From Helicobacteraceae bacterium (GTDB lineage Bacteria; Campylobacterota; Campylobacteria; Campylobacterales; Sulfurimonadaceae): a DNA stretch of 30,018 nt. The DNA is taken from the NCBI GenBank assembly GCA_027057185.1, contig JALUJE010000106.1, positions 1-30,018 of the forward strand, given 5' to 3'. The position numbers and the translations under genes are program-made. Positions 1 to 9,616 of the stretch are shown here, piece by piece; position 1 is the stretch's first letter, and every line of letters begins with the position of its first letter. Below the pieces are notes generated by a model. The model saw nothing but the letters and a program-made list of their open reading frames with translations. It had not been told where the DNA came from and searched no databases.

Positions 1-2
1 AG

Positions 3-395
3 GTTAAAAAAGCGGTTGATGATATTTTGAAACATGGAGACAAGTCGCAGTATGCTGTTATCGATACGCGTGCTATGAGTGAGATCATCGGCGAACGTAA
101 AATGGACAATTGTGCACGAAGCGGGCATATTCCAGGAGCAACGTTTATTGAATGGAATAAAATCTCAGATACACAAAATAAAAAGTCATTTAAGTCAGCA
201 GATGAGATGCAAAAAGTTTTTGATCATTACGGTGTTAGCAAAGATAAAACCATTTATGCTTACTGTATGGTCGGTACCGGGCGAAGTTCAGAAATTGTCA
301 CGGCATTGCGACTGCTTGGCTACAAGGATGTTAAAGTCTTTACCGGTAGCTGGGATGTCTGGGGTAACGACATGAACTTACCATTGAAACGATAA
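3..395 (+). CDS. Rhodanese/sulfurtransferase, C-terminal part (5' truncated by window edge)
   Basis: The frame is open from base 3 (VKKAVDDILKHG...). Motifs are IDTR..E..G, GHIPGA, active-site loop YCMVGTGRSS (Cys at 264-266) and C-terminal FTGSWDVW. It lies 17 bp upstream of the Mo-enzyme gene. Confidence 0.9.
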   Translation, partial: VKKAVDDILKHGDKSQYAVIDTRAMSEIIGERKMDNCARSGHIPGATFIEWNKISDTQNKKSFKSADEMQKVFDHYGVSKDKTIYAYCMVGTGRSSEIVTALRLLGYKDVKVFTGSWDVWGNDMNLPLKR

Positions 396-412
396 GCAAA
401 AGGGTATAAACT

Positions 413-3313
413 ATGACAAAAGTTATGAATAATAAGCGTAGAAATTTTCTGAAGATATCGGGAATGACCGCTGCACTGGTGGCATCACAGGGAAGCCTTT
501 TTGCTAAGACGCAGGTTATGTCAGTTGAAAACGGCAAAGACGATTATCCAAATACCAACTATACGGAAACGATGTATCGTAATGAATTTGCATTTACGTA
601 TGGAAAGAAAGAAGAACACGGATTTGCTTACCACTGCGTAAACTGCCAAGGAAACTGTGCCTGGGAAGTCTGGTCACATAACGGGGTGATTACCCGCGAG
701 AATCAGTCGGCGCGTTATCCGGTTATTAATGCGAAAATTCCCGATTTTAATCCTCGTGGATGTAACAAAGGGGTACAACATTCGCAGGTGATGTATCAAA
801 AAGACCGAATTCTTTATCCGATGGTGCGTGTCGGAGAACGTGGTGAAGGGAAGTGGCGCCGTGCTAGCTGGGACGAGGCTGCCGAGATTGTTTGTCAAAA
901 TATTTTTGATACCTTAAGTGATCCGGAACGAGGCCCTGATAAGCTCATGGTGCATGCCGGAACCGGACTGTTGACAGAAGGTCGTCGTGGTGCGCCATTG
1001 CGATTCTCCACACAGTTGGGAGCAAACCGTATTTATCCTTCTTCATATTTGGGTGATATGTTCTCCGGAGCTGCTATTGCTTATGGTGAAGGAAACCTAG
1101 GATGTACTTGGGACTTCATGTATACGGTCGATACGGCAGTGATGTGGGGCGGCAACCCGTCGGTATCGCGGATTCCTGATGCCCATTTTGTTTGGGAAGG
1201 CAAATATAACGGTGCCAAAATCATTGTGATTACACCGGAGTTTAATGCGACAGCAAAATCAGCAGATCTTTGGATTCCGATTAAAGCGGGTTCTGATAAT
1301 ATTTTAGCCATGAGTGTCATTCAGGTGATTCTTGAGGAGAAGCTTTACAAACCGGAATTTATGAAAGTCTATACGGATCTCTCCTTTTTGGTTGACACCA
1401 AGACGCAAAAAATGATTCGCCGTAATGATATGGAGCATACGGAAAATAAAGAAGATCACCATAAGTGGGATGAACAGTTTTACTGCATGAATGCGATGGA
1501 CAATACCCCATATTTAATGCCTGGAACCGAAGGCCATGACAAACGTACTCTACGACTTCCCGATAATGTCAAACCGGCACTGGAAGGAAGATGGACTATT
1601 ACAGATGTACATGGGCAGAAGCGAGAGGTGACAACGGTATTTGAACTGTTGAAACACTCTGCAACACAATTTTCACCGGAAAAAACAGAAAAAATAACGG
1701 GAGTTCACCCCGATACCGTGCGGCTGCTTGCACGAGACATTGCTATTCCCAAGGTCGTTGAAATCACTACCGGATTCTCTTTGAACAAATATTTTAATGG
1801 TATGATGACTATCTGGAATGTGGCATCTATCTGTGGACTTACCGGCCGGATGGGTCCTTATGGCGGTCTCAATACGGAAAATGAGTTTCAGCTTTCGGGT
1901 CTGGGAGCACTTTCAGGATTTAGCGGTAAGTATGCACCGCGTTTTGGTTCAGGATTTGTCGGCGAGTTTATGAACGGTAACGGCATGAAAACTTTTAAGC
2001 AGTATTTTAACGATGAAGATGTGCGGCGGGCGCAAAACGGCATGAGCAAAGAGGAGTATATTACGGTACTCGAAGAGATGCTTGCTGCAGGGGAGAATGG
2101 CAAAGCCAATATGGAGTCCGAGCATGGTAATGTGGTCAAACCGTGGTGGCTACCGACGACAGCACTTATTGTAGCAGACTCGACATTCCGCCGAAATAAG
2201 GCCAGTGAATATCGGAATGCTTTTTTGAAACGCATGGACTTTTGGGCGTATGTCGATTACCGCATGAGTGAAGCGGCACAATATGCCGATGTCCTGTTAC
2301 CGGCGAAATCGCATTATGAGGTGTATGATTTGCGTACTTCGCCCGGGTATCACCGATTTACAAATCTGGCACAGCCAGTAGCCAATATTAAAAATGTCGG
2401 TGAAGCCAAAGACGAGTGGAGCATGTTTACATTTCTCGCCAAAAAACTTGAAGAGATTGCAAATCGTCCGGAAAATATTGCCAAAGCCAAAATTAAAGAC
2501 GACAAACGGTATGCTCGTCCGGGATACCATGATCTTACGATTTTTCATAAAGAGTATACCAATACCGACGAAGAATCTGAAGGGGAAGGTGAGGTATATC
2601 TTGGTACCGATAAAATGGCGGTACAAGCAGCATTGGAAAAATGTGCACAATATGAGCCGTGGACCATGGAGAAGATGTATAAAGTCGGAGGTTTTTTGCT
2701 TATTAACGATAAAGCGGCACAAACATCACCGCTCTACTCGGACAAACCCTATAACTCTAATGAGTTTCATCTCTATAAATTTGAACCGATGCACACGATT
2801 TCGGGTCGCCAGACATTTTATGTTGATCACGATATGTTTATTCGTATGGGTGCAGCAACCAATACGGGAATGGAGGGAATTCGCCCACAACGCAAAGAGT
2901 ACCCGTATGTCCTGATGACGCCGCATGCAAGATGGTCAATTCACTCGAACTATAAAACATCACGAACCCTGCTTCGCTTGCAGCGAGGTGTACCGGCTGT
3001 GGCACTTAACCGCGTTGTAGCAGAGAAGAAAGGGATTAAAGACGGCGATACCATTCGTGTCTATAACAGTCTTGGAGAGTTCTATGCCATGGCAAAACTC
3101 TCCTCCTCGTCACCGGCGGACGGTCTGGTGATGGAGCATGGGTGGGAACCGTACATGTATAAATTCAACAAAGGGCACAATGAGGTGGTACCTACGTCAT
3201 TGAACCTGTTAGAAATGGCAGATGGATGGGGGCACCTCAAGTTTGGTGGTCTTTGGGACGGTAACCAGTACGCATACGATGGCGCTGTCAATTATGAAAA
3301 AGCAAACGTTTAA
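413..3313 (+). CDS. Mo-bisPGD oxidoreductase catalytic (alpha) subunit, type II DMSO reductase family, SerA/ClrA/DdhA-like; TAT-exported; substrate unknown
   Basis: Twin-arginine signal KRRNFLK. FS0 motif HCVNCQGNC...NPRGCNKG (His at 632). Putative Asp Mo ligand in LGDMFSG (D215). Also RIPDAHF, ADVLLPAKSHYE, TPHARWSIHS and GWGHL motifs. Confidence 0.93.
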   Translation: MTKVMNNKRRNFLKISGMTAALVASQGSLFAKTQVMSVENGKDDYPNTNYTETMYRNEFAFTYGKKEEHGFAYHCVNCQGNCAWEVWSHNGVITRENQSARYPVINAKIPDFNPRGCNKGVQHSQVMYQKDRILYPMVRVGERGEGKWRRASWDEAAEIVCQNIFDTLSDPERGPDKLMVHAGTGLLTEGRRGAPLRFSTQLGANRIYPSSYLGDMFSGAAIAYGEGNLGCTWDFMYTVDTAVMWGGNPSVSRIPDAHFVWEGKYNGAKIIVITPEFNATAKSADLWIPIKAGSDNILAMSVIQVILEEKLYKPEFMKVYTDLSFLVDTKTQKMIRRNDMEHTENKEDHHKWDEQFYCMNAMDNTPYLMPGTEGHDKRTLRLPDNVKPALEGRWTITDVHGQKREVTTVFELLKHSATQFSPEKTEKITGVHPDTVRLLARDIAIPKVVEITTGFSLNKYFNGMMTIWNVASICGLTGRMGPYGGLNTENEFQLSGLGALSGFSGKYAPRFGSGFVGEFMNGNGMKTFKQYFNDEDVRRAQNGMSKEEYITVLEEMLAAGENGKANMESEHGNVVKPWWLPTTALIVADSTFRRNKASEYRNAFLKRMDFWAYVDYRMSEAAQYADVLLPAKSHYEVYDLRTSPGYHRFTNLAQPVANIKNVGEAKDEWSMFTFLAKKLEEIANRPENIAKAKIKDDKRYARPGYHDLTIFHKEYTNTDEESEGEGEVYLGTDKMAVQAALEKCAQYEPWTMEKMYKVGGFLLINDKAAQTSPLYSDKPYNSNEFHLYKFEPMHTISGRQTFYVDHDMFIRMGAATNTGMEGIRPQRKEYPYVLMTPHARWSIHSNYKTSRTLLRLQRGVPAVALNRVVAEKKGIKDGDTIRVYNSLGEFYAMAKLSSSSPADGLVMEHGWEPYMYKFNKGHNEVVPTSLNLLEMADGWGHLKFGGLWDGNQYAYDGAVNYEKANV

Positions 3314-3322
3314 GGAGTTTAG

Positions 3323-4450
3323 ATGTCTAAAAGACAATTAGCAATGGTAATGGACCTGAACAAATGTATCGGGTGTCAGACATGTACCGTAGCATGTAAG
3401 ACTCAGTGGACCAACCGTAACGGCCGTGAGTATATGTATTGGAATAATGTTGAGACTTATCCGGGGACGGGGTATCCCAAAAACTGGATGGATCTAGGAG
3501 GCGGCTTTGATGCCGCGGGCGATCTTCAGCCCGGTGTCATTCCCAATTTAGAAGCCGATTACGGTGTGCCGTGGGATTACAACTATGATGCGCTTGCCGG
3601 AGGTGCCAGTTTCGAGCCAAATGTTGAACCAACGTGGGGACCTAATTGGGATGAAGACGAGGGAGACGGGGTATTTCCACAGGACAATTACTTCTTCTAC
3701 CTGCCACGTATCTGCAACCACTGTACGAATCCGGGATGCCTGAGTGCGTGTCCCCGTGATGCTATCTTTAAACGAGAAGAAGATGGCGTGGTGCTGGTAG
3801 ATCTTGACCGGTGTCAGGGATATCGTTACTGTATTGCAGGGTGCCCATACAAAAAAATCTATTTTAACCCAAAAATTTCCAAGTCAGAAAAATGTATTTT
3901 GTGTTTTCCCCGAGTAGAGCAGGGGCTTCCGCCGGCATGTGCACAGCAGTGTGTCGGACGTATCCGTTTTGTCGGCTTTTTAGATGATGAGGAGTCGCAG
4001 GTATACAAACTGGTACATAAGTATAAAGTGGCACTGGGCTTGCGCAGTGATTATGGTACGCAGCCGAATGTCTATTATGTGCCGCCGACTGAATCGCCGG
4101 TAAAATTTGATGCTGAGGGGAAAATTATTGAAGGCTCAGACCGCATTCCGGTAGAAGAGCTTGAGAAACTATTTGGTCCAGAAGTGCATGATGCCATTAA
4201 AACGCTGAAATCAGAAATGAAAAAGCGTAAAGAGACGGGTGAGAGTGAATTGATGGATCTGTTAATTGCCTATCAGCACGCTGATATGTTCCGTCTGGAC
4301 AATACGTACTATCAGAAAGTTGCCAAAGAGAAGGGTCTCAATCCGTTGGCTCCGGTGGATACTCGCTATATTGCAGGAAAGTACACCAAGACAGGGCACA
4401 GTATCAATTTTACGCACGGTGCTGGATCTACAGCAGGAGGGCATCACTAA
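3323..4450 (+). CDS. Fe-S beta subunit (NarH/SerB/ClrB-like; three 4Fe-4S plus one 3Fe-4S)
   Basis: MVMDLNKCIGCQTCTVACK, CNHCTNPGCLSACP, CQGYRYCIAGCPY, CILCFPR...CAQQCVGRIR. No signal peptide. SD GGAG upstream. Confidence 0.95.
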   Translation: MSKRQLAMVMDLNKCIGCQTCTVACKTQWTNRNGREYMYWNNVETYPGTGYPKNWMDLGGGFDAAGDLQPGVIPNLEADYGVPWDYNYDALAGGASFEPNVEPTWGPNWDEDEGDGVFPQDNYFFYLPRICNHCTNPGCLSACPRDAIFKREEDGVVLVDLDRCQGYRYCIAGCPYKKIYFNPKISKSEKCILCFPRVEQGLPPACAQQCVGRIRFVGFLDDEESQVYKLVHKYKVALGLRSDYGTQPNVYYVPPTESPVKFDAEGKIIEGSDRIPVEELEKLFGPEVHDAIKTLKSEMKKRKETGESELMDLLIAYQHADMFRLDNTYYQKVAKEKGLNPLAPVDTRYIAGKYTKTGHSINFTHGAGSTAGGHH

Positions 4451-5661
4451 TGAAAACCATAGTAACAACACTGTTAGTATCTGCACTGGCGAGCAGCACA
4501 CTTTTTGGTGCAAATGCGACCATCAATGCACTAAAAGTAGCGGATGACTTAAGTACCATTTCTTATGCGTCGGCGCTTTGGAACAAAGCGACCTTTGCTC
4601 CTGTCGTACTGTACCCGCAGACGACTATTCGCATGAACGACAAAACAGCCAACGAACTCAATGCTGACAATCCCGCTAAAAAAGCCATGGTGGCCGCAGT
4701 CTACAACGATCACAGTATTGCTTTTATGATACGATGGCCTGATGCGACTATTAATGTGCAAAAAGGGGAGCGTACTACAAGTTATGCCGATGGATTTGCC
4801 GTACAGTTTGCGAGTCATTTTAGTGATCCAAATGCCTTGCCATACATTGGTATGGGATCAGAAGGACGACCGGTAGTGGTGTATCTGCAAAAAGTGGCAA
4901 AAGATATTTATGAGCCTAACGGTAACGGTGACGTGGCGCTTCAGGTCAATCGTAATCAGACGGATCTTTTTGGAAAGGCACTTCAAGCATTTGATGATGA
5001 AGTTGCATCGTTAGGAAACAGTGACTATGAACGATCGTTCATCAGTGAGGGGTTTCGTTCGATGACAGAGATTAAAGACGGTAGCAACAATTCTAATGCT
5101 CGGATTCGTTATATGAAGCGAAATAAGGGCTGGGAAGGTACCCTGACCCGTGCGCTTAGAGATGAGTATGTTAATCTGGATGCTCCTGTGATTCCTGTTG
5201 CATTTGCTGTTTGGGATGGTGAAAAAATGGGACGAGACGGTTTAAAACATCTCTCAGCCTGGGTCGCGGTAACGCTTCAGGGAAAATCTGGCGGCGAGGC
5301 ACTGATTCATGCTCTTGAGGGTACTTTGGTCGGTGATCCAAAAGCGGGTGAGCGTGCCATTGCTGCAAACGGTTGTGTCGGCTGTCATCAGATAACGTCT
5401 AAGGATGCGCCGAACCTGATGGGACCTTCTTTGGTCAACATTGGCGGATATTCGACGGCAGGATATTTAAAAGAGTCTTTACTCAAGCCATCGGCAGTAA
5501 TTGTTCCGGGATATAATCGTAACGCACATCCTGCGTATCCGTGGTATACTTTAAATAATGGTAAGCGGGTATCGAGTATGACGGATTTTTCATGGCTGGA
5601 TGAGAAAACTCAAAATGATATCGTCGCCTACCTGCAGACGCTTAAAGCGGAGGTGAAATAA
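4450..5661 (+). CDS. Gamma subunit: EbdC/SerC-like heme-b (DOMON-like) domain fused to a C-terminal monoheme cytochrome c
   Basis: Sec signal. DGFAVQF, PYIGMG (Met ligand candidate) and AFAVWDG...RDGLK (Lys ligand candidate), followed by CVGCH at 5374-5388, GPSL, ESLLKP and a distal SM Met. Start overlaps the beta stop (TAATG). Confidence 0.85.
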   Translation: MKTIVTTLLVSALASSTLFGANATINALKVADDLSTISYASALWNKATFAPVVLYPQTTIRMNDKTANELNADNPAKKAMVAAVYNDHSIAFMIRWPDATINVQKGERTTSYADGFAVQFASHFSDPNALPYIGMGSEGRPVVVYLQKVAKDIYEPNGNGDVALQVNRNQTDLFGKALQAFDDEVASLGNSDYERSFISEGFRSMTEIKDGSNNSNARIRYMKRNKGWEGTLTRALRDEYVNLDAPVIPVAFAVWDGEKMGRDGLKHLSAWVAVTLQGKSGGEALIHALEGTLVGDPKAGERAIAANGCVGCHQITSKDAPNLMGPSLVNIGGYSTAGYLKESLLKPSAVIVPGYNRNAHPAYPWYTLNNGKRVSSMTDFSWLDEKTQNDIVAYLQTLKAEVK

Positions 5662-6062
5662 TGAAACGTATCGCAATGACGGTTCTGGCATTGAGTTTAA
5701 GCCTGTTAGCCGATGAGGGTGCTTTTGAAAAAGAGGGCTTTTTAACGACACAGGCCTGTGCGGAGCAGGGTACATTCAAAGATTGCTACATGGAAAATTT
5801 TGTCTGTGGCGGTGATGGATGTTTTCAAACAACTGAGGCAGGAGTCGATAAAAAGACTCCGCTGGTACTCTATTCTCATGATGATGGTATCATTTATAAA
5901 CTCGATACCTCTAACGTACCGCGCGAGGCATTCGATATTGGTATCAGCCGTAACGGCGTGGCGGTTACAGGGGAGTATGACAGTAGTAGTAACACCATTG
6001 TCGTGCACGAATTTAAGGCACCGCCACCACCGAAAAAATCCTTTTTTAAAGGGTGCCTCTAG
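5661..6062 (+). CDS. Small exported Cys-rich protein of unknown function, coupled to the molybdoenzyme operon
   Basis: Sec-type signal, four N-terminal Cys, PPPP linker and C-terminal KGCL-stop. Start overlaps the gamma stop (TAATG). Confidence 0.8.
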   Translation: MKRIAMTVLALSLSLLADEGAFEKEGFLTTQACAEQGTFKDCYMENFVCGGDGCFQTTEAGVDKKTPLVLYSHDDGIIYKLDTSNVPREAFDIGISRNGVAVTGEYDSSSNTIVVHEFKAPPPPKKSFFKGCL

Positions 6063-6063
6063 T

Positions 6064-6083
6064 TTCAAAGCAAGTGCTTTGAA
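6064..6083 (+). other. Intra-operon hairpin (possible mRNA stability or attenuation element)
   Basis: TTCAAAGC-AAGT-GCTTTGAA, an 8-bp perfect stem directly after the stop. There is no U-tract, so it is not a classical terminator. Confidence 0.4.
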
Positions 6084-6171
6084 GCGGTACTGCCATAATT
6101 TACATGTAATTTTGTAGGTGCCTTTAAGTGCCGATATGTTACAAGTCTTCAGAAATAATTTAGGATAGTTG

Positions 6172-6741
6172 ATGAACAAAGAGTACCGACTCTATATCTA
6201 TGCCTTTTTATCACGGGTGATGAGTGATATGCCCGATCGACGGTTTATTGCCGATCTCAAAGTCAATGATGCGCTATTAGATGTTCTGGGAGAATCAAGT
6301 AAAAGATGGCTATTGCAACACGATAACGACACTATTTTTGAAGCATTAAATGCGGACTTTACTTCAATGTTTATTCTCAATACCCAGCCTGTGGAGGCTT
6401 TTGTGCTCGATGCCAAGAACGAGACGCTGGTTGGACTGCAAAATCCGGTGATGGCATTCTATTTTCAACATGGATTTGAATTGAATATGGAGCAGACCGA
6501 ACTGATGGCACCTGATCATCTCTCCATAGAGTTTGGTTTTATGCAATCGCTCATCTACAGGGATGAGCTTCAGTCGCAGTATGATTTTATGAAGATTCAC
6601 TTGATGATGTGGGTTATTCCTTATATGCTAGGAATGCAGCATATGGCTCAAACCCCGTTTTATCGGGATATTTGTGATTTTATTGTGGAGTTTTTAGTGG
6701 CAGACTATGCGTACTTGAATGCGGAATGTAATCATGCGTAA
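6172..6741 (+). CDS. TorD/DmsD-family molybdoenzyme maturation chaperone
   Basis: YRLYIYAFLSR, PVEAFVLD and APDHLSIEFGFM (DHxxxE motif). ATG at 6172 is chosen over TTG 6169 because of the SD AGGA. Confidence 0.9.
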   Translation: MNKEYRLYIYAFLSRVMSDMPDRRFIADLKVNDALLDVLGESSKRWLLQHDNDTIFEALNADFTSMFILNTQPVEAFVLDAKNETLVGLQNPVMAFYFQHGFELNMEQTELMAPDHLSIEFGFMQSLIYRDELQSQYDFMKIHLMMWVIPYMLGMQHMAQTPFYRDICDFIVEFLVADYAYLNAECNHA

Positions 6742-7828
6742 CGGTGATTTTGTACAGAACAAAGCACTGTTTAGTTTTAATGCGGCAGAGTGTTTGCGTA
6801 ATGCTTATTTTCACAATACATGTACGCTTTGTATTGATCTGTGTCCCAAAGATGCTTTGCTTCTGGTGCGTAATAAATTAACCCTGATGGGAACAGAGTG
6901 TATCGAGTGTGCTGCTTGTATTGGAAGTTGCCCTACAGAAGCCCTTGATATAGAGAGTTTTGATCCTAATGCCTTTACGATGACCTTTCAAGAGCAGGAG
7001 AACAAGATATTGTCTTGCCAAAGCAATACGCCGTGTCTTGGGGTGTTTGATACGCCTCACTATATTACTATGGCACTACAAAGTGACGTGGCTCCCCGAT
7101 GTGATCTTTCGCATTGTGAAGGATGTCGTCTTAATGATGGGCGCACCGTCGAGCAGGCCATTCGTCACAAGATCGTGCAGAGTAATGACTTTTTGGAGCA
7201 TGTCGGCATGGAAGCGCGAAGCATTACGATAAAAGAAACATCTGATGATGAAGCCGATAGTGCCCGTAGAGCACTTTTTCGAACGGCATGGAATACTGTG
7301 CATGAAGTTATCCGTGATAATGAAGAACAGGAGCCTGCGATAATGACACGTACTCTTGCAGGTGGCAAGACGGCACTACCACTAAAATATACCCTGCTAA
7401 AAAACTCGATTAAAGAGCATATTGGACAGTTCAGCACTACTCATTTAGAAGGAGTTCATCCACTGTTTTTCAATAAACGTATTGATTTTGAAGCCTGTAC
7501 CAACTGTGGGGACTGTATCCAGTTCTGTCCGACGGAGGCTCTGTTTGCGACGTCGGACAGACAGGGTATCATCTTTAAATCAGGAATGTGCATTGGGTGT
7601 GGTATTTGTGACGATATCTGTAAGAGCAGTGCCATTGGCACGGAAATGGGTTTAGATCTGGTCGCCGTTGCTTTTGATAGAGCGGAAGAGCTGGTACATT
7701 ACGAGATGGTAATGTGTCATGAGTGTCGCTGTCCTTATCCCTATAAAGGAGGCGACCCTCTTTGTGAGCGCTGTAAAACATTTCATGATAATTTTGAAAC
7801 CATGTTTATCTTAGCTAAAGATCAGTAA
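6734..7828 (+). CDS. Polyferredoxin (multiple 4Fe-4S dicluster domains plus extra Cys clusters)
   Basis: CTLCIDLCP, CIECAACIGSCP, CTNCGDCIQFCP, CIGCGICDDIC, plus CDLSHCEGC and CHECRC...CERC. ATG 6734 overlaps the chaperone stop. Confidence 0.85.
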   Translation: MRNGDFVQNKALFSFNAAECLRNAYFHNTCTLCIDLCPKDALLLVRNKLTLMGTECIECAACIGSCPTEALDIESFDPNAFTMTFQEQENKILSCQSNTPCLGVFDTPHYITMALQSDVAPRCDLSHCEGCRLNDGRTVEQAIRHKIVQSNDFLEHVGMEARSITIKETSDDEADSARRALFRTAWNTVHEVIRDNEEQEPAIMTRTLAGGKTALPLKYTLLKNSIKEHIGQFSTTHLEGVHPLFFNKRIDFEACTNCGDCIQFCPTEALFATSDRQGIIFKSGMCIGCGICDDICKSSAIGTEMGLDLVAVAFDRAEELVHYEMVMCHECRCPYPYKGGDPLCERCKTFHDNFETMFILAKDQ

Positions 7829-7831
7829 AAC

Positions 7832-8884
7832 TCACTCTTTATCCATCTTCTCTTTGGCTCCTTTGATGGCACCGTCAATGGCGGACTTGGCAACGCTCCA
7901 TGCATAAATACCCATTCGTTTAGCTTCCTGAGCTGTTTTGGAGTTCATTACCTTACTGCTTTGCTGCAGGGCATCTTCTTTAATATCGCTAAAACGTTCT
8001 TTCATTGTCTCAGCGGTTTCACGAGCTGCTTGAATGAGATGCTCCATATCAAATTTAATATCGCCGGTAATCTCGTCGAGTATCTCTTGAATCATTGGAC
8101 TGTTCTGTGCGGCAACATCATGAATGATACTGTTAAAGAGTGCATCAATATGATGGAGTTCTTGTTGGAGTGAGGCATAATTGTCAATCAGTATCATCTT
8201 GGCTTCATCGGGCATATAAAGTAACTGTTTGTTGAATTTATTGATGGAGCTTGTCAGCCCCTGACGCATTCCGCGCAATGTACCGCGCAGAATCTCCTTG
8301 GCGCTATTGGGGGAGGCTTCGGCAACATAGGTTGCGGTATTTAAAATGGTACTTAAAATACTTTTAACACGCAAGGTATTGGGAGTCTTTTCATTGAGCG
8401 TATGTGTTGTGATCTCTTGAATAGCTCCTTTAATACTCTCTTCAATATTCTCACTTTTCTCCAGAGCGGTGATAATTGCCGATTCACACATCTCTGCAAG
8501 CATATCATACAGATCAATGGATTGTAAGCGAATCTGGTGCAGCATGGTAAGAATTTCTTGAGGACTTTCCTGAAGGGCTTTTTCGATAGCATCGAATGTC
8601 TCTGCTTTTGCCAATTGTAGCGCTTCGCTTTTTTTTTCTAGCTGGCGTTCAATGCGTTCTTTTTGGGCAAGAAGTTCATCGACTTCATCGTGCAGTGATT
8701 TGACTTCAGCGTCCATAATTGCGGATGTGATAATTTTGAGTTCATTTTGTGTCATACCGGAAGTAGAGATATCCCACTCATTATGAATATGTTGCAGCAA
8801 AGCATCAGTACGCTCTTCAATGCTGTGGTGAGTATCAGATCTGTAAGTGCTTTTAATGTCCCGTTCGAGTTGTTTGTAGTCCAT
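7832..8884 (-). CDS. Helical/coiled-coil conserved hypothetical protein (resembles DUF6781 proteins of Campylobacterota)
   Basis: 350-aa ORF rich in E/K/L/I heptads, strong SD AAGGAGG, last gene of the moaC operon. The family name is from recall only. Confidence 0.7.
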   Translation of the reverse strand: MDYKQLERDIKSTYRSDTHHSIEERTDALLQHIHNEWDISTSGMTQNELKIITSAIMDAEVKSLHDEVDELLAQKERIERQLEKKSEALQLAKAETFDAIEKALQESPQEILTMLHQIRLQSIDLYDMLAEMCESAIITALEKSENIEESIKGAIQEITTHTLNEKTPNTLRVKSILSTILNTATYVAEASPNSAKEILRGTLRGMRQGLTSSINKFNKQLLYMPDEAKMILIDNYASLQQELHHIDALFNSIIHDVAAQNSPMIQEILDEITGDIKFDMEHLIQAARETAETMKERFSDIKEDALQQSSKVMNSKTAQEAKRMGIYAWSVAKSAIDGAIKGAKEKMDKE

Positions 8885-8895
8885 AGTGCTCCTCC

Positions 8896-9165
8896 TTACA
8901 GAACCATTTTAACATGTTGATTGGCCTTAAGTGCTTCGTAAATAAAATTACGATCCTCTTCATTGTGCACCAGAAGGTCAAGATTCATGCTCAAGTAGGT
9001 GCCACTACAACTCTGATTTGACTGTTTTAGTGTATGGGCACGTTCACAGATGACATCGTGAACGGCCTGTTCGAGTCGTTCGCGCTCTTTGCCAATAATC
9101 TTATAGGTCCAGTTGCAGGGATACTCCAGTTGGAGTTTTTGCGTACTATCGTTGATAATTTCCAC
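8896..9165 (-). CDS. DUF493 / YbeD / HP0495-family protein
   Basis: [13 protein letters not shown]...[29 protein letters not shown]. Start reassigned to GTG 9165, which has an SD AAGGAGG upstream. Confidence 0.88.
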
Positions 9166-9616
9166 TCTTGCCTCCTTCTTTGGATTCGAGTTGGATCTGA
9201 TGTATGACCATCGCCTTGTCAATGGCTTTGACCATATCATAAACGGTAAGCAGTCCAATGCTTACTCCGGTGAGAGCTTCCATCTCCACTCCGGTTTTCC
9301 CGGTCAATTTTACTTTGAGAAACATCTTAAACCCGGGTAGTTCCGGTAGCTCTTGCATATCACACTCAATACCGCTGAGATTGAGTGGATGACACATGGG
9401 AATCAGTTCGCTGGTTTTTTTTGTACCCATAATTGCGGCAATTACCGCTGTCTGAAGTACCGGTCCTTTTTTGGCTTTTTCATGGATGATAGCATCATAG
9501 GCATCACGACTCATCTCAATAATGCCACTGGCAACCGCGATGCGGGTACTGGACTCTTTCGCCGAGACATCGACCATTTTGGGGCGATCGTGCTCATCTA
9601 AATGGGTTAATTTCAT
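9146..9616 (-). CDS. moaC: Cyclic pyranopterin monophosphate synthase (Moco biosynthesis)
   Basis: LTHLD...[44 protein letters not shown]. Confidence 0.98.

Follow-up and report, generated by a model that had tools for sequence, protein, structure and literature searches.

The seven-gene cluster described here is a widely conserved but biochemically uncharacterised system of sulfur-vent bacteria, so far labelled a nitrate reductase, which encodes an exported molybdenum enzyme together with a rhodanese and a small, previously unnamed protein carrying a cysteine close to the end of a flexible tail. Our tentative reading is that the enzyme is a cytochrome-c-linked dehydrogenase oxidising sulfane sulfur, which is loaded by the rhodanese onto the tail of the small protein. 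The substrate and the direction of the reaction are inferred. The cluster lies at one end of the analysed window, a stretch of 30,018 nucleotides from the start of contig JALUJE010000106.1 (assembly GCA_027057185.1). The window begins at the contig end, and the rhodanese gene is therefore truncated. All seven open reading frames are co-oriented and tightly packed. Rhodanese and alpha genes are 17 nt apart, beta/gamma and gamma/carrier share ATGA-type overlaps, and the chaperone and polyferredoxin genes overlap by 23 nt. The individual features are listed in Table 1.

Table 1. Positions of the genes and motifs in the window, with the family assignments obtained from Pfam and NCBIfam profile searches.
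Feature	Position (nt)	Strand	Description
Rhodanese	3-395	+	C-terminal catalytic domain (130 aa) of an exported two-domain rhodanese, 5' part lost at the contig end; Pfam Rhodanese, E 8e-13
CMVGTGR	264-284	+	Active-site loop of the rhodanese
Alpha	413-3313	+	TAT-exported Mo-bisPGD catalytic subunit, 966 aa; Molybdopterin and Molydop_binding domains; best NCBIfam model TIGR03479, 724 bits, aligned full length, below its 985-bit naming cut-off
RRNFLK	437-454	+	TAT motif of alpha, residues 9-14
HCVNCQGNC	632-658	+	FS0 ligands of alpha, residues 74-82
PRGCNKG	752-772	+	FS0 ligands of alpha, continued
Asp215	1055-1057	+	Mo ligand of alpha, in SSYLGD
DEESEGEGE		+	Alpha, residues 719-727
Beta	3323-4450	+	Four-cluster iron-sulfur electron-transfer subunit without signal peptide; TIGR03478, 508 bits, above the 481 cut-off; Fer4_11
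Gamma	4450-5661	+	Sec-exported EB_dh haem-b domain (Pfam, E 1e-23) fused to a class I cytochrome c (Cytochrom_C, E 2e-7)
LPYIGMGS	4837-4860	+	Met ligand position of gamma
RDGLKHLS	5233-5256	+	Lys ligand position of gamma
CVGCH	5374-5388	+	Cytochrome c motif of gamma
Small Cys protein	5661-6062	+	Sec-exported, carrier-like; no Pfam or NCBIfam hit
C-x8-C-x6-C-x4-C	5757-5822	+	Four conserved Cys of the small protein
APPPPKKSFFKGCL	6018-6059	+	End of the Pro-rich arm of the small protein, Cys132 being the last-but-one residue
Chaperone	6169-6741	+	Cytoplasmic TorD/NarJ-type maturation chaperone for alpha; Pfam Nitrate_red_del, E 7e-7; NCBIfam TorD, E 1e-9, and TIGR03482, E 8e-8
Polyferredoxin	6719-7828	+	Cytoplasmic, at least four 4Fe-4S motifs; multiple Fer4 families and a weak NapF/NapH-type match
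DUF6781	7832-8884	-	Convergent neighbour
DUF493/HP0495 family	8896-9258	-	Convergent neighbour

The same seven genes in the same order were found in every one of 80 related genome loci that has enough flank, except that the chaperone is not conserved next to the Thiovulum copies. The beta subunit is 77-97% identical in all these loci, while the polyferredoxin is conserved at 30-69% identity. Beta presumably leaves the cell bound to alpha, and a role of the polyferredoxin as a maturation or Fe-S insertion helper in the manner of NapF is inferred only. The two convergent genes occur downstream on the opposite strand in most Sulfurimonas, Sulfuricurvum and Hydrogenimonas loci. No Rfam family, including no Moco riboswitch, was found in the window or in two relatives with the full upstream region, and a promoter and terminator scan of positions 5900-9400 gave nothing above shuffled sequences worth reporting. 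The stretch occurs in hydrothermal vent DNA runs of four studies, but no RNA run holds it.

Alpha belongs to the type II DMSO reductase family. Its Mo-ligand Asp215 aligns with D170 of PcrA and is invariant in 60 sequences, and the AF2 model has a pLDDT of 88.5. In trees rooted on NarG alpha nests with ClrA and uncharacterised relatives, inside pNarG and NarG, and lies outside the ClrA group with 100% support for the split. Among reviewed proteins the nearest are DdhA, SerA and ClrA, with 35%, 33% and 33% identity, respectively (33.7% to the Ideonella ClrA), while identity to PcrA is 28%. The placement on the Ddh/Ser/Clr branch, as far as DdhA and SerA are concerned, rests on these pairwise figures. 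A relative with the ABDC gene order is sister to, not inside, the rhodanese-linked clade. The Met and Lys columns of gamma are shared with ClrC, the Haloferax pNar gamma and the gamma of L086, another of the compared loci. These results support the preliminary description, which had placed alpha on the SerA/ClrA branch and inferred an uncharacterised clade with sulfur or selenium chemistry fed by the rhodanese. However, the clade is not confined to Campylobacterota, as had been supposed. A sister group with 42-44% identical alpha has the same partners in another gene order. In addition, the small Cys protein is the key extra module, and oxidation of sulfane sulfur is favoured over reduction of an oxyanion by the haem-b/cytochrome-c gamma and by the distribution relative to SoxCD.

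The association of alpha with a rhodanese and a small tail protein maps to one clade with 99% SH-aLRT support, and it holds under the second gene order (carrier-rhodanese-alpha-beta-gamma) in groups whose alpha is only 41-44% identical. The sister loci also carry a YeeE/YedE-type sulfur transporter and an ArsR-rhodanese regulator. We found 241 homologues of the small protein, all unnamed, and 115 of 120 end KSFFKGCL, the tail columns being nearly invariant. In 24 metagenomic loci of a sister group the tail Cys is replaced by a UGA codon followed by Leu and a stop, and a SECIS-like hairpin with a covarying stem follows 12-15 nt downstream, which is the pattern of a catalytic Cys/Sec. The small protein has a beta-barrel core, no sequence relative in the PDB and no Foldseek match at E 0.001 or better. 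Structural alignment with VIA-align gave only generic OB-fold rows at Z 5-6, below the level that means kinship. Full-length rhodaneses of relatives are about 380 aa (e.g., positions 6842-7984 of the related locus L006) and show a Sec signal peptide, an inactive N-domain, a Lys-rich linker and a conserved C-x5-R loop. This loop is one residue longer than in the nearest solved thiosulfate sulfurtransferases. Its length appears to be that of phosphatase and arsenate-reductase relatives, which we cannot explain and which counts against our reading. One derived lineage has lost three things together: the FS0 ligands in alpha, the rhodanese Cys and the carrier tail. Reading through the stop in the tail-less carrier of locus L084 revealed no hidden tail.

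Among 400 good Campylobacterota genomes, 38 hold alpha and only 2 of those have true SoxC, and these two have both systems, while 57 of 76 non-holders in the same families have SoxC. The pattern repeats inside single genera. In the genus of the analysed genome, 4 of 5 other genomes hold alpha and none of the five has SoxC. Related genomes are not independent, and the raw counts therefore overstate the pattern. The bin to which the window belongs also includes a contig with soxCDYZ, but this contig is short (4.5 kb) and lies at the 5th percentile of tetranucleotide fit to the bin. We consider it probably mis-binned, although this is not proven. Published SoxCD-less Sulfuricurvum genomes include a holder (PMC4288042).

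Taken together, the operon encodes a soluble periplasmic alpha-beta-gamma enzyme with two dedicated exported partners. In the path we tentatively propose, the two-domain rhodanese takes a sulfane sulfur atom from thiosulfate, polysulfide or elemental sulfur and passes it to the last-but-one cysteine on the tail of the small protein. The tail would enter the alpha funnel, where the molybdenum centre would oxidise the bound sulfur by oxygen-atom transfer from water. Electrons would run through the iron-sulfur clusters of alpha and beta to haem b and the fused cytochrome c of gamma, and from there to the cytochrome c pool and so to the cbb3 oxidase or the denitrification enzymes. The system would then do what SoxCD does with SoxYZ. 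Complex prediction of alpha with the carrier tail gave a weak pass without contacts, and is used as a minor point only. The ipSAE was 0.48 (runs 0.40-0.60) against a best control of 0.00, the runs agreed in at least 57% of contacts, and the partner pLDDT was at least 74. In calibration the mark was reached by 58 of 80 solved complexes and 2 of 110 mismatched pairs, but at scores of 0.60 or under by only 7 of those 80 and by both mismatches that passed. These counts hold only roughly here, since our own alignments were used. Some observations speak against the proposed path. Cultured holders include Nitrosophilus alvini, which grows only on hydrogen as donor and uses thiosulfate or sulfur as acceptors (PMC7728183), and 22 of 38 holders also lack SoxB, leaving no obvious enzyme to release sulfate from a carrier-bound sulfonate. 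There are no biochemical or genetic data for any member.

Alternative functions were considered. A dehydrogenase for a free small sulfur compound, such as dimethylsulfide, methanethiol, sulfite or thiosulfate, would agree with DdhA being the nearest reviewed protein, with the haem b plus cytochrome c exit route and with the YeeE-type transporter of the sister loci. The rhodanese and the small protein would then only handle the product or a side product, for example by trapping sulfite or sulfane sulfur, or act as an extra subunit, and rhodanese chemistry generally does link thiosulfate, sulfite and persulfide. We regard this as unlikely, since it explains neither the tail with Cys/Sec interchange kept between groups whose alpha is only about 42% identical, nor the joint loss of FS0 ligands, rhodanese Cys and tail, nor the mirror-image distribution with SoxC. 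Still less likely is a periplasmic reductase for selenate or selenite, tetrathionate, thiosulfate or polysulfide, with the rhodanese and the carrier taking up the reduced product. SerA and ClrA are reductases of the same branch, several holders are hydrogen oxidisers that respire sulfur or thiosulfate, the rhodanese matches the ExtH selenite/tellurite-operon model weakly (E 5e-6), and longer rhodanese loops seem to occur in selenium-handling relatives. On the other hand, Met/Lys haem b and class I cytochrome c are, in the known relatives, generally high-potential carriers that cannot drive thiosulfate or polysulfide reduction. Selenate is scarce in these habitats, yet alpha is 67-97% identical across families, and nothing in a reductive function predicts complementarity with SoxC.

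The two remaining possibilities are very improbable. A periplasmic nitrate reductase (pNar) or nitrite oxidoreductase is what automatic annotation suggests, JGI naming some homologues nitrate reductase / nitrite oxidoreductase alpha, and the Thiovulum and aquifer genome papers call the genes narGH. However, alpha is 27% identical to the characterised Haloferax pNarG and 18-19% to NarG, and lies on another branch. The segment before the Mo-ligand Asp reads YPSSYLGD, where NarG-type sequences have FYDWY-x-D, and the genome has a true NapA at 1274 bits. A nitrate enzyme also has no use for a rhodanese or a Cys/Sec-tailed protein. For a chlorate or perchlorate reductase speak PcrA as the best solved structure by sequence (E 1e-107) and the ClrA group as the sister branch of the wider clade. 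Nevertheless, no chlorite dismutase (PF06778) was found in the whole genome, which is 80.6% complete, and no linked cld was seen in relatives. The PcrA aromatic gate positions F164, Y165 and W167 read Y, P and S, the W461 region does not align, and gene order and partners differ from clrABDC with cld in Ideonella.

Sulfur-oxidising Campylobacterota dominate vents, sulfidic caves, aquifers and oxygen-poor waters, and many of them lack SoxCD, in which case they are assumed in publications to stop at elemental sulfur. We found no paper that links this cluster to sulfur oxidation or characterises it, and the rhodaneses mentioned in transcriptome papers on Sulfurovum could not be tied to this locus. 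It is possible, though far from established, that this is the first Mo-bisPGD enzyme whose substrate is a protein-bound sulfur atom, carried on the Cys (or Sec) at the tip of a swinging arm of a dedicated OB-like carrier loaded by its own rhodanese. It would then be a third, independently evolved sulfur-carrier system beside SoxYZ and DsrC/TusA, and the missing sulfane-oxidising step in the many SoxCD-less sulfur-oxidising Campylobacterota such as Sulfuricurvum, Thiovulum and many Sulfurimonas. In that case the present label narGH inflates nitrate-reduction potential in surveys of such communities. Cultured holders exist, namely N. alvini, N. kaiyonis and Sulfurospirillum arcachonense.

The closest known system is the dimethylsulfide dehydrogenase DdhABC of Rhodovulum sulfidophilum (Foldseek E 2e-99, TM 0.86/0.91 for alpha), which also has a periplasmic TAT-exported alpha-beta unit with an EB_dh haem-b gamma, oxygenates a sulfur atom and passes electrons to a c-type cytochrome. 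The gene order in our cluster is A-B-C-carrier-D-polyferredoxin, not ABDC, gamma carries its own cytochrome c, and a rhodanese and a Cys-tailed small protein are obligatory partners. ClrABC of Ideonella dechloratans and SerABC of Thauera selenatis share the x-G-D type segment before the Mo-ligand Asp, the Met/Lys haem-b gamma and a TorD/NarJ chaperone; these enzymes are reductases of free oxyanions, with other partners and gene order. The proposed logic is that of SoxCD with SoxYZ, where a periplasmic molybdoenzyme oxidises sulfur bound to a cysteine on the flexible C-terminal arm of a small carrier and reduces cytochrome c, and the two systems are almost mutually exclusive across genomes. They are not homologous, since SoxC belongs to the sulfite oxidase family and SoxY ends GGCGG on an Ig-like fold, while the small protein described here has no SoxY or SoxZ match and ends KGCL on an OB-like barrel. 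In Wolinella succinogenes the periplasmic rhodanese Sud is thought to hand sulfur to a Mo-bisPGD enzyme, the polysulfide reductase PsrABC, but Sud is a single-domain protein, Psr is a membrane-bound quinol-dependent reductase of another branch of the family, and no carrier protein is involved. In DsrC and TusE a reactive cysteine at the last-but-one position of a flexible C-terminal arm likewise serves as the sulfur-bearing substrate of a redox enzyme, although these proteins are cytoplasmic, have an unrelated fold, and partner with DsrAB rather than a molybdoenzyme.

The sequence analysed is the start of a 30-kb contig of an 80.6%-complete hydrothermal-vent MAG. Seven genes lie there on the + strand, and the positions of these and of other features mentioned below are collected in the table. 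Domain searches identified the products as the C-terminal domain of a rhodanese, cut by the contig end, a 966-aa Mo-bisPGD alpha with Molybdopterin and Molydop_binding domains, a four-cluster beta, a gamma with an EB_dh haem-b domain and a C-terminal cytochrome c, a 133-aa exported protein with no family, a TorD/NarJ-type chaperone and a 369-aa polyferredoxin. The best model for alpha was TIGR03479, aligned over its full length at 724 bits, i.e., below the naming cut-off of 985, while beta matched TIGR03478 at 508 bits, which is above the cut-off. Neighbouring genes overlap or lie 10-17 nt apart, with the exception of a 106-nt gap before the chaperone gene. Alpha carries RRNFLK, the FS0 motif HCVNCQGNC...PRGCNKG and an Asp (215) which aligns with the Mo ligand D170 of PcrA and is invariant in 60 relatives. 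Gamma and the small protein have Sec signals, while beta, the chaperone and the polyferredoxin have none. The preliminary description of these genes as a tightly coupled molybdoenzyme system was thus confirmed in every detail that we could check. In addition, gamma of this clade has an insert of about 45 residues in the EB_dh domain relative to ClrC and the Haloferax gamma, and its cytochrome c domain is nearest to an uncharacterised solved dihaem protein (7zs0, E 5e-6).

Positions of the gene cluster and of associated features in the contig and in related loci
Feature	Sequence	Position	Strand
Seven-gene cluster, rhodanese to polyferredoxin	window	3-7828	+
Gamma (EB_dh haem-b domain and cytochrome c)	window	4450-5661	+
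DUF6781 (350 aa, coiled-coil-like) and DUF493/HP0495-family gene	window	7832-9258	-
LRV-repeat protein, protein of about 123 aa and Mrp/ApbC-type ATPase	related locus L006	4473-6479	-
Rhodanese read as two overlapping frames (3403-3723 and 3603-4532)	97%-identical relative L002	3403-4532	
P0121 locus of the degenerate offshoot	L084	6901-13465	
P0122 locus of the degenerate offshoot	L091	6964-10851	
soxC-soxD-soxY-soxZ contig in the same bin	G000:C61 (L090)	1-4491	

Homologues of alpha at 67-97% identity fill Sulfurimonas, Sulfuricurvum, Sulfurovaceae, Hydrogenimonas, Nitratiruptor/Nitrosophilus, Thiovulum and Sulfurospirillum arcachonense, and none of them carries an informative name. Among 80 genome loci, every locus with enough flank has the order rhodanese-alpha-beta-gamma-small protein, and all but the Thiovulum-type loci also have the chaperone and the polyferredoxin. 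The conserved block is larger than seven genes. In 41 of 48 loci that reach that far, including Hydrogenimonas and Nitratiruptor, a divergent trio sits directly upstream of the rhodanese, consisting of an LRV-repeat protein, a protein of about 123 aa with no family, and a Mrp/ApbC (NUBPL-type) Fe-S carrier ATPase. In the contig analysed here the trio would lie beyond the contig end. A Mrp-like gene also lies beside the operon of the selenocysteine group described below, in locus L118, and these genes may be dedicated Fe-S maturation factors of the enzyme. Downstream, DUF6781 and a DUF493/HP0495 gene are convergent neighbours of the operon in most loci, namely in most of those from Sulfurimonas, Sulfuricurvum and Hydrogenimonas, although we see no functional link. 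In the 97%-identical relative L002 the split reading of the rhodanese is a frameshift or an assembly error. Two contigs filed under a Thermoplasmata archaeon MAG (MUGE01000142.1, MUGE01000223.1) carry alpha and beta 83-93% identical to the Sulfuricurvum type, and are almost certainly bacterial contigs mis-binned into an archaeal MAG.

The best solved relative of alpha by sequence was PcrA (E 1e-107), followed by EbdA and NarG. The nearest reviewed proteins by fold and sequence were DdhA (35%), SerA (33%), ClrA (33%), Haloferax pNarG (27%), PcrA (28%) and NarG (18-19%). An exhaustive search of 1.8 billion cluster representatives collapsed the whole campylobacterial clade into one representative, and then found only uncharacterised sequences at 46%, 41%, 38% and 35% before the 31-34% crowd. 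Two maximum-likelihood trees were built, with Ideonella ClrA and Haloferax pNarG taken from annotated plasmids. In both trees the clade studied here is sister to a group made of the sequence P0124 and the loci with a selenocysteine carrier (99% SH-aLRT). Next out is P0125, which has the classic ABDC order and no rhodanese, and next is the ClrA group, while pNarG and NarG are far outside. Alpha is therefore on the Ser/Clr/Ddh branch, as the preliminary description had proposed, but not inside ClrA; SerA and DdhA were compared by pairwise identity only and are not part of the trees. Active-site comparisons point the same way. The segment before the Asp ligand (YPSSYLGD) is of the x-G-D type, not the NarG type, the PcrA gate residues are not kept, no chlorite dismutase was found in the 80.6%-complete genome, and a true NapA is present.

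The full-length rhodanese in relatives is about 380 aa, with a Sec signal, an inactive N-domain, a Lys-rich helical linker and a catalytic C-domain whose loop reads C-[MQH]-V-G-[AT]-G-R. This loop is one residue longer than in the nearest solved thiosulfate sulfurtransferases. The small protein has four conserved Cys, a predicted beta-barrel core (AF2 pLDDT 76) with only generic OB-fold similarity, and a Pro-rich arm ending KKSFFKGCL. The ending was found in 115 of the 120 listed homologues, and four more keep the final CL. The link between alpha, rhodanese and tail protein goes beyond the phylum. The high-GC locus L085, with alpha at 41%, reads: ArsR-rhodanese regulator, a 122-aa protein ending KSCL, rhodanese, YeeE/YedE-type transporter, alpha, beta. 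A metagenome scan for the tail with TGA in place of the Cys codon returned 29 loci, where one or two were expected by chance, and 24 of these are real homologues ending KK-x-FFKG-U-L-stop, with a GC of 47-63%. Where flank allows, they are followed by rhodanese, alpha (42-44%), beta (60-63%) and a gamma with a cytochrome c end. A conserved GC-rich hairpin with a covarying stem and a GG[CU] loop follows the UGA by 12-15 nt, as a bacterial SECIS would, and the group looks like an undescribed small selenoprotein family. Cys/Sec interchange at one position of a motif kept between such distant groups marks that residue as the reactive centre. A natural control is offered by a derived, degenerate offshoot of the campylobacterial clade, represented by P0121 and P0122. 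In the P0121 locus the FS0 His/Cys ligands of alpha, the catalytic Cys of the rhodanese (now Ser) and the Cys tail of the carrier have all been lost together, while the related P0122 locus has no beta or gamma at all. Both sit in sulfur-related contexts, among DUF302, DsrE-like, thioredoxin-like and metallo-beta-lactamase-fold genes, and may represent a non-redox sulfur-binding or sulfur-processing derivative.

The distribution of alpha was compared with that of Sox genes in 400 near-complete Campylobacterota genomes. Alpha was found in 38 of them, spread over nine families, and in none of 276 genomes of the two largest families. In five otherwise near-complete genomes (G034, G040, G190, G344 and G277) alpha is split or carries an in-frame stop, which suggests recent decay of the system in some lineages, or assembly errors. 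True SoxC, i.e., above cut-off, is in 60 genomes, and only two holders of alpha (G144 and G336) have both. In the families that contain holders, 57 of 76 non-holders have SoxC. The pattern repeats within single families: in the family designated f1 holders had SoxC in 0/6 cases against 25/28 for non-holders (24 above cut-off plus one gene split across two contigs), in f4 0/6 against 11/14, and in f7 0/2 against 18/21. It also repeats within one genus, g2, where none of the three holders has true SoxC, while 17 of 18 non-holders do (16 above cut-off plus that split gene). These counts overstate the statistical weight, since kin are not independent, and the repetition in several families is the stronger point. 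SoxB is in 16 of the 38 holders, and in one family, in which all eight sampled genomes hold alpha, soxB lies only 6-15 kb from alpha on the same contig (G014, G032, G040, G356 and G382). The bin from which the contig derives has itself a short soxCDYZ contig of 4.5 kb. However, the tetranucleotide fit of this contig to the bin is at the 5th percentile, and while four of the five other genomes of the genus hold alpha, SoxC was found in none of the five. We therefore regard it as probably mis-binned (bin contamination is 3.6%). Published genomes agree with the general pattern, as Sulfuricurvum PC08-66, a holder, S. kujiense and RIFRC-1 lack soxCD.

The Met and Lys haem-b ligand positions of the family are kept in gamma, a class I cytochrome c is fused to it, and the genome has a cbb3 oxidase. 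In characterised relatives this haem b is generally high-potential, which suits a dehydrogenase feeding cytochrome c, or a reductase of a very oxidising substrate, but does not suit reduction of thiosulfate or polysulfide. Combined with the rhodanese, the Cys/Sec arm, the nearest characterised chemistry (oxygenation of a sulfur atom by Ddh) and the complementarity with SoxCD, this leads us to a carrier-dependent sulfane dehydrogenase, a model which we hold only tentatively. In this model the rhodanese loads sulfane sulfur on Cys132 of the carrier, the arm enters alpha, Mo oxidises the bound sulfur, and electrons leave through haem b and haem c. The following count against it: no experiment exists, Nitrosophilus alvini, a holder, grows only on hydrogen and uses thiosulfate or sulfur as acceptors, 22 holders have no SoxB to release sulfate, and the C-x5-R loop of the rhodanese is unexplained. 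The complex prediction of alpha with the C-terminal half of the carrier passed only weakly, with an ipSAE of 0.48 (0.40-0.60) against a best control of 0.00, at least 57% shared contacts between runs and a partner pLDDT of at least 74. According to the calibration of the method, passes at 0.60 or under are more often wrong than right unless the pairing was already likely, and the calibration counts hold only roughly here, since our own alignments were used. The broader statement, that the three exported proteins act together on one sulfur (or selenium) species through the tail residue, we consider likely.

We found no paper that characterises the cluster, and where it was noticed it was labelled as a nitrate reductase. 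The Thiovulum stygium paper describes a six-gene operon of rhodaneses, narG, narH, a cytochrome c and an unannotated gene, and an aquifer MAG paper calls it NarGHI (PMC4674564). The system belongs to a known enzyme family, from whose described members it differs by a new, conserved set of partners and, very likely, by a new substrate type.
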